DNA of 64,000 nucleotides from Octopus vulgaris (taxonomy: Eukaryota), in the NCBI GenBank assembly GCA_951406725.2, contig OX597834.1:15624001-15688000 (forward strand), written 5' to 3'. Position 1 is the first letter of the stretch; each line of letters opens with the position of its first letter. Under the pieces are notes generated by a model. It worked only from the letters and a program-made list of their open reading frames with translations. It was not told where the DNA came from and searched no databases. A program made the translations under genes and the position numbers. Positions 2,617-46,500 of this stretch are shown piece after piece.

Positions 2617-2690
<74 letters not shown>

Positions 2691-2700
2691 GTTATTATTA
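2521..2700. repeat. (TTA)n microsatellite
   Basis: Seen directly. Confidence 0.98.
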
Positions 2701-2841
2701 CTAAGGGCGGCGAGCTGGCAGAATTGTTAGAGTGTCCGATCGGAAAAAAAAAGTTGCTTTTGTGCTATTTGTTCTGGTTTCCATTTTTTTTTCTTACACT
2801 GAATTCCTACATACGTTGACACACGCATAAACAGATGCGTG

Positions 2842-3490
<649 letters not shown>

Positions 3491-3828
3491 TGTCTATATA
3501 TATGTGTATGTATCACAGCTGAGATAATTATAGTGTTAGTGTACTGACGATGGAAATCAGAATGCTTCCTCTGGGCGTTGCCTAAACACTTTCTGTCTGC
3601 GTATATACACGCGGATCCATACAAATTCACCGATTGCTATCTGAAGATGAAGACGCCATAATAAAGTCACGTGTAAAGAAAAAAAAAACCCAGTTCTTTT
3701 CAGACTGAGGCTGAAATCCATTTGTTGCAATTATTTCACTTAGTATAAGGAAGAGGGAAAGGATGGGGGTGGGGAGATGGAGGTGGTGGGGGGGGGGGAT
3801 GTGCTTTTAGCTGCATTTTATTGTTTTG

Positions 3829-3859
<31 letters not shown>

Positions 3860-3927
3860 TTTCAAATTAGACAATAGACAGAGAGAAGTGCAAGATAATA
3901 AAGTGAAGAAGTGCAAGATGATAGAAA

Positions 3928-4462
3928 AGGAGAAGAAGAAGAAGAAGAAGAAGAAGAAGAAGAAGAAGAAGAAAGGGGAGGAGGAGGAGGAAAAGCAGAA
4001 GAAGAAGAAGAAGAAGAAGAAGAAGAAGAAGAAGAAGAAGAATATGAAGAAGAAAGAGGAGGTGGAAGAGAAGAGGAATGTGAGGAAGAAGAAGAAGAAT
4101 GTAAAGAAGAAAGGGGAGGAGGAGGAGGAGGAGGAGAAGAAGAAGAAGAAGAAGAAGAAGAAGAAGAAGAAGGAGAATGCGAAGAAGGAGAAGAAGAAGA
4201 ATATGAAGAAGAAAGAGGAGGTGGAAGAGAAGAGGAATGTGAGGAAGAAGAAGAAGAATGTGAAGAAGAAAGGGGAGGAGGAGAAGAAGAAGAAGAAGAA
4301 GAAGAAGAAGAAGGAGAAGAAGAAGAATATGAAGAAGAAAGAGTATGTGGAAGAGAAGAGGAATGTGAGGAAGAAGAAGAAGAAGAACAACAACAACAGG
4401 AATGTGGTGAAGAAGAAGAAGAAGAAGAAGAAGAAGAAGAAGAAGAATGTGGTGAAGAAGAA
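3928..4462. repeat. (GAA)n/(GAG)n compound repeat with internal block duplications
   Basis: Block aatatgaagaagaaagag...gaagagaagaggaatgtgagg recurs three times. Confidence 0.95.
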
Positions 4463-4478
4463 GTAGACTTCTGAAGGG

Positions 4479-4723
4479 TATGACCATAAAACGGAACGCG
4501 ATATTCATGGAAACGGCCCAGGAACGTTATTGCGGAATATGACAATTGAAACCGGCAAACGAAACGGTGACGTCCAGATATTTTGGCAGAGAATAATGAA
4601 GAACAAGTTAGGTGCTTAATCGGTGTTACTTACCAATTTGATACAAGAATGGAATACAAGGAACGTGAGACAATAGAAAAATACGAAGACCTAAAATAGA
4701 AGCTTCAAGGAATTTATAATTGC
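4479..4723 (+). pseudogene. R4/Dong-like LINE fragment, restriction-like endonuclease domain
   Basis: Manual translation with one frameshift and a stop: YDHK...RPDIL...LIGVTYQFD...KERETIEKYEDLK, resembling the RPD...K.EKY.DL REL motif. Confidence 0.6.
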
Positions 4724-39675: not shown

Positions 39676-39759
39676 CTTTCTGCTGAAGAGGCAACGCCAG
39701 TGGTAAATAAATTTATTTTATTTACTAAAGATTGCCGAAACTATGCATAGTCCAGAAAG
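39676..39759 (+). ncRNA. Type I hammerhead ribozyme, canonical core
   Basis: ctttctg CTGAAGA ggcaa...ttgcc GAAA ctatgcatag TC cagaaag: 7-bp stem I, 5-bp stem II, palindromic stem III, GUC site. Confidence 0.85.
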
Positions 39760-43501: not shown

Positions 43502-43580
43502 CACATGACCTAGTGGTTAGAGCAGCGGACTAGCGGTCGAGGGATCGCGGGTTCGAATCTCAGAACCGGGAGATGTGTGT
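43499..43580 (+). mobile_element. SINE head C fragment
   Basis: tagtggttagagcagcggac...ggttcgaatctcaga. Confidence 0.75.
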
Positions 43581-43995
43581 ATACTGGTAGAATGTGTTTA
43601 TAAAACATCATTTTGTCATGGCTTTATTGAGAAAATTCTATTGTTTGTAAGTTATTTGTTGTTTTTTCTTCAATTTCTGCAATTTCAACCAATCAAATAC
43701 GTCTATTGAGTTAAAAAGCATTCTGTGCCGTATGAATATGTCCCTCGTTTAATAAACAGATTGAGTTTATTTACATTTCTGAAGAAAAAAAGATACCCCT
43801 AACCCTAACCAACCCTAACTAATCCTAAAGCAGATTGAAATACAATAGATCGATACTAGGGTCATAATTATGGGTGACAATTTCATATGACACCGCTAGA
43901 AAAACTGCCGTTCAAACCGAAAAAATCCATATATATATATATATATATATATAAATTGATCAAAATAAAAATAAAAACATGAGGCGAAGGATTCA

Positions 43996-44073
43996 GCGGT
44001 ACATATGTTTCGGGCCTTTATTAGACAGATTTATAACAAAGCATAATGTATGTCTGTGGCCTTCTTCAGCCGC
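43996..44073 (-). ncRNA. Type I hammerhead motif (mirror copy)
   Basis: Reverse complement of 44210-44287. Confidence 0.72.
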
Positions 44074-44209
44074 GCACAACAGCTTCCACAAGGACATGTG
44101 TTACATCAAAAATTCTTGGTTGGGGATGCAAATCCTCTCGTTCACGTACGACATAATGCGGCAGCAGCATAGAATTGAAGCGTCCATCTCTTTCTTCTCG
44201 CTGTTGTGC

Positions 44210-44287
44210 GCGGCTGAAGAAGGCCACAGACATACATTATGCTTTGTTATAAATCTGTCTAATAAAGGCCCGAAACATATGTACCGC
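44210..44287 (+). ncRNA. Type I hammerhead motif
   Basis: gcgg CTGAAGA a ggcc...ggcc c GAAA catatg TA ccgc; A.C mismatch at 10.1/11.1. Confidence 0.72.
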
Positions 44288-44512
44288 TGAATCCTTAGCC
44301 TCATGTTTTTATTTTTATTTTGATCAATTTACTCCACCACCTACACCACCAAACGGTATACACAGGTGCTTATAATTATCAAGTACTCACCCCGAATTTC
44401 TATATATATATATATATATATAAGATTAAATAATAAGGGTAGAAATTGATATTAATCAATTAAAACCAGTGGTTTAGCATATTTTTAAAAAATACGAAGA
44501 TTAAAAATTGTT

Positions 44513-44698
44513 ACATACAAAATTAAGAGGAATGACCACTAAAGTGGACACCTAATTTGCTAAACATAGACGTCAAATCGCCATTACCACGAAGTGTATG
44601 TTCTCAAGAAACACACTCTTCGTGGTAATGGCGATTTGACGTCTGTGTTTAGCATATTAAGTGTCCACTTTAGTGGTCATTCCACTAATTTTTTATGT
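44513..44698. repeat. Inverted repeat, ~82-bp arms, within a (TA)n-bounded insert
   Basis: 44513-44594 vs 44618-44698, a few mismatches. Confidence 0.9.
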
Positions 44699-45363
44699 AT
44701 ATATATATATACAGTATATATATATATATATATATATAATTTAAAATTAGAGCATTTAACGCTATTCGAACGCAACACCCCTTGCATTTCAACCTCGTTT
44801 CTGTTGACACTACATTTTGTGTAATATGTCTCAGGATAAATTACTCGAATGTTTATCCGTAAGAACATATTTCCTTCTCTTCCTTTTTTGCTCCTAGCGC
44901 GCATGCGTTGCGCTTTCAAGTCCTTGTTTACTCTCGTTAATTGCAATATCGCAGGGAAATTAAATTTGTCTTCTAGTTTCCTCTCCCGAGAGAGGCATAC
45001 CTTATCTAATTTGCTCTAACCATCTTTATAACCTTTTAATAACTTAATTTACGATCCGCGAATAATTGGAAATATAATATTCATCTGTTGACGAACAATT
45101 TAGAATTTAACGACAAAGAATGTACGATCTGGATATAGCAGCCGCATCGAAGTCTTAGACTTCCAGGAGTTTGCCTCTTATTACTTCCTTTTGCTTCCGG
45201 TTAATCTTAACCCTTTTGCGTGTCGGTATTTCAATGGATATCTAAACTGTATCGAAATCATGGCCTTCTGTAAGTACCCTTACCCTGCTTCCTTAAATAT
45301 TATAACAATTTTTTAACGCACTTGAATAATCTATGGTTGTTGAGAAAAACTTAGTCGTAGGTA

Positions 45364-45749: not shown

Positions 45750-45934
45750 AAAAAAACATTCTATAATCTTACCGTGTATCTGTCTTGTAAATTTGTCTGT
45801 TTATGTTTTTGTTTTATGATATCGATTAAGTGTCAGTGTTTTGACTGCTACCAAAACTTCGTTGCAATCTCTGATCATCAGAACTTTACCTCTTGTCTAA
45901 GCACGTACAAAACACTTTTGACTAAATAAAATGA

Positions 45935-46500
45935 TAATTGAATATCAAAATTTGACTGGATATCGAAACCGCATAGAGATCTTTTATTCTTCGAGTGTAG
46001 CGGGAACTCTTCCATGTAATAAACGATTGTCAGATTTTCACTGGATATCGAAACCGCATCGAAATCTTTATTTTTCAAAGGTTTTGCTAAATATAATAAA
46101 TGATTGTCAGATTTTCACTGGATATCGAAACCGCATCGAAATTTTTATTCTTCAAAGGTTTTGCTAAATATAATAAACGATTGTCAGATTATCACTGGAT
46201 ATCGAAACCGCATCGAAATCTTTTAATCTTCAAAAGTTTAACTCTAGTTCGAGTGTAGTGGGAACTCTTCCATGTAATAAACGATTGTCAGATTTTCACT
46301 AGATATCGAAACCGCATCGAAATCTTTTATTCTTAAAAAGTTTAACTCTAGTTCTAGTGTAGCTGGAACTCTTCCATATAATAAACGAGTGTCAGATTTT
46401 CACTAGATATCGAAACCGCATCGAAATCTTTATTCTTCAAAGGTTTTTGCTAAATAATAATAATCGAGTGTCAGATTTTAACTCGATATCGAAATTACAT
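45935..46500. repeat. Minisatellite, 7 units of 77-104 bp
   Basis: gatatcgaaa anchor at 45959, 46044, 46121, 46198, 46302, 46406, 46485. Confidence 0.92.

Follow-up and report, generated by a model that had tools for sequence, protein, structure and literature searches.

Inverted hammerhead motifs within a young Penelope-like insertion of Octopus vulgaris

In a 64,000-nucleotide stretch of the Octopus vulgaris genome (here called the window), two hammerhead ribozyme motifs lie on opposite strands of an inverted repeat, which raises the question of how such a pair arises and whether the arrangement does anything. A first-pass annotation had read it as a young inversion acting as a built-in off switch: pairing of the two arms would block folding of the ribozyme, and initiation within the spacer would free it.

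Anatomy of the insert and its parent element

Sequence comparison within the window recovered the two arms as annotated, 132 nt each (43952-44083 and 44200-44331) with a single mismatch and a 116-nt spacer between them, and a complete hammerhead motif (GCGG-CUGAAGA-A-GGCC..GGCC-C-GAAA-CAUAUG-UA-CCGC) was present in each arm, on opposite strands (Table 1). The sole mismatch (43986 G versus 44297 T) was a private change of the right arm; the left arm retained the subfamily base. The annotated limits of the feature (43952 to 44331) proved too narrow, since the element also takes in the spacer and, beyond the right arm, positions 44332-44400. At 29 of 29 other loci, the spacer sequence lay directly upstream of the arm and the extra stretch downstream of it. 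Therefore, the whole insert of 449 bp, located between two (TA)n runs, is composed of a minus-strand copy of 248 nt (left arm plus spacer, which has the same sense) and, on the plus strand, a 201-nt copy (the right arm followed by a 69-nt tail). At their junction, the copies break off at +13 on one arm versus +129 on the other, and a 29-mer spanning it occurred once in the whole genome. Both ends of the insert lie within (TA)n, where any target site duplication would be masked.

Table 1. Features of the insert in window coordinates; signed positions are those of the element transcript
Feature	Position	Strand	Remarks
(TA)n target repeat, left	43929..43953	.	From sequence; overlaps the arm end by 2 nt
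Truncated copy of the element 3' end (pLTR) without tail, transcript +13 to +260	43952..44199	-	100% identical to natural copy L038 over 248 nt
Spacer, element +13 to +128	44084..44199	-	Upstream of the hammerhead; initiator absent
GGACG, DPE-like, +27	44185-44181	-	Within the spacer; resembles RGACGTGY (PMC2377424, in part)
Type I hammerhead motif, left arm	43996..44073	-	Core 44069-44063; GAAA 44011-44008; predicted cut after 44000
Head-to-head junction	44199..44200	.	Blunt, with neither microhomology nor added bases; single occurrence in the genome
Truncated copy with tail, +129 to +329	44200..44400	+	206 nt aligned with L038 at 99.5% identity
Type I hammerhead motif, right arm	44210..44287	+	Helix I GCGG/CCGC; core 44214-44220; helix II GGCC/GGCC
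Right-arm hammerhead, details	44221, 44271, 44281-44283	+	A 44221 opposite C 44271; palindromic CAUAUG helix III; GUA 44281-44283; predicted cut after 44283
AC-rich tail, 69 nt	44332..44400	+	In tandem copies, opens the following unit; lies 149 nt ahead of the ORF start
(TA)n target repeat, right	44401..44422	.	First 4 nt match the element too

A descriptor scan of the whole window returned the two arm hammerheads, one unrelated hammerhead and nothing else. The unrelated motif (39678-39757, plus strand) is of type I, with G10.1-C11.1, 5-bp helices I and II, GUC and a palindromic helix III, CUAUGCAUAG, and probably belongs to another Penelope-type family. Next to the insert, (TA)n runs enclose a fold-back repeat whose two arms differ in length, one being long and the other short (44423-44700; 2,806 first-look candidates, 82-94% alike); the same descriptor scan found no hammerhead in it, and it may have been left as a stub by a further family of Penelope type. 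An array of 77-104-bp repeats was located at 45929-46479, with more copies at 45129-45259, and a tRNA-like stretch after a (GA)n run (43503-43575) is, judged by eye, probably a SINE head.

When the genome (2.8 Gb, 227 contigs) was searched with the arm, 1,140 first-look candidates were obtained (top match 99%), and, upstream of the arm, longer copies extended across ∼1.9 kb of low-complexity DNA to an ORF. The pLTR is formed by partial tandems and varies in length (L076, L077, L080 and others), the upstream copies of which begin at -9 to -1591. Tandem copies read pLTR, tail, 80 further bases and ATG, and natural units measured 4684-4797 nt in the order pLTR-tail-ORF-pLTR-tail. Family copies were 99% alike; the element is young. 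As a side observation, the ∼1.9 kb of low-complexity noncoding DNA between stop codon and hammerhead, present in L038 and at ∼2660-4560 of the L077 unit, recalls the 0.9- to 1.5-kb spacer described for Adineta Pen1 in part of PMC3846280. One tandem locus, L074 (G000:C2:132246500-132256400), had hammerheads only 1,437 bp apart and represents an internally deleted, nonautonomous unit. Several single copies (L151, L153, L160, L167 and L149) ended near -300 to -306 beside (ATTT)n, which reflects either a second boundary or an alignment effect.

An 836-aa frame was intact in 3 of the 14 loci fetched. Its product contained the motifs ADKT and YRDD, a CNCR..CPL linker and a VIY..YIG endonuclease, and the C-terminal VIY..YIG..R motif aligned with relatives. 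The P0001 and P0002 proteins and the A1 profile were not detected by Pfam and PDB sequence searches (P0002 matched neither Pfam RT nor, by sequence, any PDB entry), and it was the fold search that settled identity: for the model of the 836-aa protein (pLDDT 85), the four best Foldseek matches were all telomerase reverse transcriptase (TERT; E 8.5e-9), at a TM of about 0.3 and 10-12% identity. A Pfam GIY-YIG match was obtained for 3 of 16 aligned members (best 1e-5), P0002 not being one of the three. Between RT and endonuclease, residues 698-712 form a zinc-finger-like CX2-5CxxC linker, CNCRCASECPLQGAC, which was kept in relatives; in the portion of PMC8557442 dealing with it, this linker is a feature of the Neptune clade, shared partly with Nematis. 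The parent is thus best described as an endonuclease-bearing Penelope-like element (PLE) with a Neptune-type linker and as a candidate member of that clade. In P0002, two inserts modelled with low confidence (residues 488-544 and 637-691) are also rich in N, R, S and T; most relatives lack them, and they resemble the N-rich inserts of Adineta Penelope ORFs.

Pairing habit and breakpoints

The hammerhead 28-mer had 1,547 exact copies in the genome. The first 100 of these matches fell into 68 clusters, among which were 28 divergent pairs (0.22 expected by chance) and 1 convergent pair; extrapolated from 28 per 100 matches, the genome is estimated to hold ∼400 pairs. Sixty of the 68 clusters were fetched (the C1 sample: 27 of the 28 pairs and 33 of the 38 singles), and three singles turned out to be pairs, resulting in 30 pairs and 30 single arms. 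With tails called by motif, exactly one tail was present in 30/30 pairs, compared to a tail in 12 of the 30 single arms. One tail per pair was likewise the rule in a tail-selected sample (22/22) and in the simple pairs of a sister family (9/9), the tenth sister locus consisting of three arms. In general, arms ended in (TA)n (85 of the 90 arms in the C1 sample). Hammerheads were within 700 bp of each other in 14 of 28 C1 pairs (278 bp in the window), and centre loops ranged from 0 to 870 nt, spacer length not being kept.

Among the first 100 matches there were no short same-strand neighbours, those on the same strand being 4.7-8.2 kb apart. This spacing ruled out a non-LTR retrozyme made of tandem noncoding monomers. 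A MITE or foldback DNA transposon was ruled out as well, as the ends are asymmetric by the tail and inner breakpoints range from -65 to -4493. An assembly or long-read fold-back artefact was also considered. None of the contigs listed from four public runs bridged the junction, but these probably represent other individuals and are evidence neither way; a fold-back read would mirror the flanks, which differ here, and a tail on only one arm in a layout that obeys the family-wide rule makes an artefact extremely improbable. The window pair is almost certainly an ordinary by-product of Penelope insertion.

Breakpoints were analysed in 42 simple pairs, after 10 of 52 pairs had been set aside for their complex centres (gaps exceeding 30 nt); 21 of the 52 had been chosen for tail and youth. 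For the test of arm identity, four pairs with an arm beginning inside the segment were excluded. The two arms of one locus differed by no more than one change in 25 of 28 pairs, versus 37% across loci, and arms matched in subfamily. Paired 5' breakpoints were at most 12 nt apart in 15 of the 42 simple pairs (shuffled mean, 3.3; reached by 0 of 20000 shuffles), six of these 15 lying outside the breakpoint hot spot. Matching arms and coupled breakpoints therefore indicated that both arms came from one RNA or one source.

The hot spot itself was narrow: 25 of 84 breakpoints fell within a 30-nt zone, and at single-base resolution, 44 breaks were located at the A of TCA+1TTC versus 11 and 12 at its two neighbours. 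TCA-TTC is an initiator-like motif. A G preceded 27 of the 44 breaks at the initiator A, in contrast to 4 of 23 at the neighbours (Fisher p 7e-4), and was also present directly after (TA)n in 4 of 12 breaks; in 14 of the 27 cases, it could be read as the partner arm's base as well, and one of the 44 initiator-A breaks was a point change. An extra G marks full-length L1 copies of capped RNA (described in part of PMC11702581). We infer from the extra G at the initiator-A hot spot that the template was probably a capped sense RNA starting at +1, both the cap and the start being read from DNA alone. The GGACG at +27 resembles the RGACGTGY of the Penelope internal promoter as given in part of PMC2377424. 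An intron in the pLTR was rejected, since 219 of 221 arm records (redundant loci included) were near full length and no spliced class was found.

The same data bear on self-priming on an antisense pLTR transcript, which was proposed for Adineta Penelope palindromes and is the published reading of head-to-head junction palindromes (PMC3846280, as far as the parts compared go). The lack of a spliced pLTR class here is compatible with that proposal. However, the position of the extra G, 5' to the initiator A on the sense strand, is that expected of a capped sense template, and both 3' ends match two sense-RNA starts known in vitro from the relevant part of PMC11167929, so that we regard antisense self-priming as very improbable.

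The hammerhead motif and the proposed switch

Both arms contained the type I core CUGANGA, GAAA, NUH and helix I, and the core and CAUAUG were kept in four related families, while no Rfam hammerhead family was matched, with either the gathering score or E≤10 as cut-off. Helix II covaried (GGCC/GGCC in 269 records, GGCU/AGCC in 21+ and UAGC/GCUA in one, records being redundant and related). The unusual A.C at 10.1/11.1, which the first-pass annotation had pointed out, was common to the young family; the sister family had A.A, single loci A-U and G.U, and none of those examined had the G10.1-C11.1 called highly conserved in part of PMC4209133. The sequences thus mark A.C as a family trait and not local decay. 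A different helix II register with an extra A and a bulged C would restore G-C in the young family only and was rejected, given that GAAA is preceded by A or U in sister families. Flanks of L020, L025 and L046 contained standard minimal hammerheads of another family, with an extra A after the core, G10.1-C11.1 and no loop III.

In the monomer, helix III was reduced to one pair around a palindromic loop and was not stable, whereas two molecules were computed to form an 8-bp intermolecular helix III (-9.0 kcal/mol), a dimer of the type described in PMC4209133. Folding predicted a single arm to be 4-8 kcal/mol from the active fold. A loop II pseudoknot was looked for in six loci, which shared no common pairing and showed no covariation. 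The arm motifs are classed as a variant of the PLE-type hammerhead, a putative ribozyme. A metazoan PLE hammerhead tested in single form did not cleave, and dimers cleaved weakly (parts of PMC4209133 and the review PMC6765202); the Anolis hammerhead depended on protein, and insertion in vitro could proceed without it (part of PMC11167929).

As claimed, the duplex is predicted to block the ribozyme: read-through RNA of either strand folded into a long duplex, and helices I and II can be imposed on it only at a cost of 126 kcal/mol. A selected switch, with the ribozyme silenced by the antisense arm and released by initiation in the spacer, could also draw on the DPE-like motif of the spacer, which points into the left arm. 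Part of a likely promoter region (+13 to +128 with GGACG) is indeed present in the spacer, but the initiator A has been cut off in the window copy. Moreover, there would be little to switch off, because the freed arm is itself predicted to misfold by the margin given above, with a 1-bp helix III and a helix I probability of ≤0.004, and the single metazoan PLE hammerhead cited above was inactive. Against selection also stand a unique and young junction, a pair geometry that was not conserved among sampled pairs, the absence of a same-strand partner hammerhead from the window and the lack of any long host-gene open frame near the locus. The locus shows a standard PLE insertion footprint (PMC8557442, PMC3846280, PMC4209133), and we consider selection for such a switch very improbable. 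The hammerheads would rather be passengers of the pLTR that, in tandem elements, would cleave as dimers via the CAUAUG palindrome; at the window locus they are predicted to be locked in the duplex, without a selected role.

A two-end route to the pair and comparison with known systems

Established parts of the process are a parent encoding RT and GIY-YIG domains, insertion into (TA)n, a single tail in each pair, arms that match, breakpoints that are coupled and the extra G at the hot spot. We favour the view that the 449-bp insert represents two 5'-truncated 3' ends made in one integration, with both cut DNA ends priming on the same capped sense RNA. The enzyme would cut both strands of (TA)n; one DNA end would start reverse transcription at the end of the tail (+329) and the other ∼70 nt earlier (+240 to +260). 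Both cDNAs would run toward the RNA 5' end, to the initiator A at +1 or to a break, and their 3' ends would be trimmed and then joined. For the Anolis enzyme, cutting and extension of both strands have been shown in vitro, with two start sites that bound the tail (part of PMC11167929). With regard to the supposed young inversion, its youth is borne out by the 1 mismatch in 132 and by the likeness of family copies; it is not resident DNA that has been inverted, however, but probably two copies that were inserted at once.

A serious rival is that one cDNA snaps back at the RNA 5' end or at a break, copies itself and stops before the tail, with later trimming making the spacer. This would account for identical arms, coupled breakpoints and one tail per pair, and R2 is a documented case of snap-back following full-length cDNA (PMC11371274, in the part compared). 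Recurrent CAATGTAG|ATTCTAC centres can be read as a G-C pair closing an AAT loop with a cap-copied C, and centres of the type GTAG-AAT-CTAC (e.g., L133/L220) fit a three-base snap-back loop equally well. However, centres with 0-2 unpaired bases (L020, L238, L136 and L246) could not be primed by a fold of one strand, microhomology at breakpoints was not in excess over chance (18 blunt, 13 with 1-4 nt and 11 with added bases), and the tail arm, which snap-back predicts to be the longer one, was shorter than its partner in 11 of 42 pairs, the window locus among these. Since these three observations favour the joining of two cDNAs over a hairpin, and snap-back leaves the stop of the copy at +240 to +260 unexplained, we consider it rather unlikely. 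Counter-evidence to two-end priming is that 30 of the 60 C1 loci were single armed, for which loss or nonuse of the second end must be invoked. A later deletion across the palindrome centre could give any asymmetry.

On a wider scale, there is an even chance that the Penelope reaction as it runs in vivo can be read from these octopus insertions: an initiator-DPE promoter within the pLTR would give rise to a sense RNA, capped and unspliced, which a dimeric enzyme would copy from each DNA end at one of two fixed starts, and the cDNAs would be joined end to end; the hammerhead without G10.1-C11.1, kept across four lineages, may cleave as a protein-assisted dimer. If true, two-end copying would supply second-strand synthesis and account for inverted pLTRs and the one-sided tail together. 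The origin of inverted pLTRs and tails of PLEs is named as open in part of PMC8557442, and the choice between sense and antisense RNA templates was left open by PMC3846280 in the part compared. Both questions become testable in this family, which is young, retains intact ORFs, follows a strict one-tail rule and has a likely cap signature. The window locus itself, one of ∼400 estimated pairs, is minor, and its family is valuable as a test bed. The insert is real, young and ordinary for a Penelope-like element, a likely by-product, and nothing suggests selection. Octopus is an animal with heavy A-to-I editing, and the pairs may represent ready-made sources of hairpin RNA.

The inverted layout, the one-sided tail and opposite-strand hammerhead pairs have already been published; new from this family are the strict one-tail count and the likely cap signature. 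Literature searches, covering abstracts and passages of main texts, turned up neither the family itself nor a cap G in insertions of Penelope nor the A.C variant; variants of that kind may be described by Lunse et al. 2017, on PLE hammerhead variants. As far as the compared parts of PMC8557442, PMC3846280 and PMC2377424 go, published PLEs share with the octopus family an ORF with RT and C-terminal GIY-YIG, partial tandems, a microsatellite target, a pLTR hammerhead and an inverted, 5'-truncated copy at the 5' end, with the tail often at one end only. In contrast, the octopus tail is 69 nt long versus 30-40 nt in those sources, the ORF begins 149 nt beyond the pLTR and not within it, and ∼1.9 kb of low-complexity noncoding DNA separates stop codon and hammerhead. 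The dual minimal hammerheads of Schistosoma mansoni, on opposite strands and 100-700 bp apart (part of PMC4209133), have the same arrangement as the window pair, whereas octopus pairs were traced to single insertions with one tail, and their motif is without G10.1-C11.1. Anolis Poseidon in vitro shares two RT starts bounding an AC-rich tail, an AT-rich target and extension of both strands; it belongs to a different clade, and inverted copies and the RNA 5' end lie outside the parts of PMC11167929 compared. Non-LTR retrozymes are likewise short, noncoding and PLE related and carry a type I hammerhead, but form tandem arrays (part of 10.64898/2026.07.22.740005), in contrast to the inverted pair from a coding element described here. 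Similarly, in LINE-1 twin priming, a second DNA end primes on the same RNA, and a cap-derived extra G is found (part of PMC11702581). There, the second primer lands internally, and therefore the pieces do not overlap; in the octopus pair, both starts would lie near the 3' end, resulting in a true inverted repeat.
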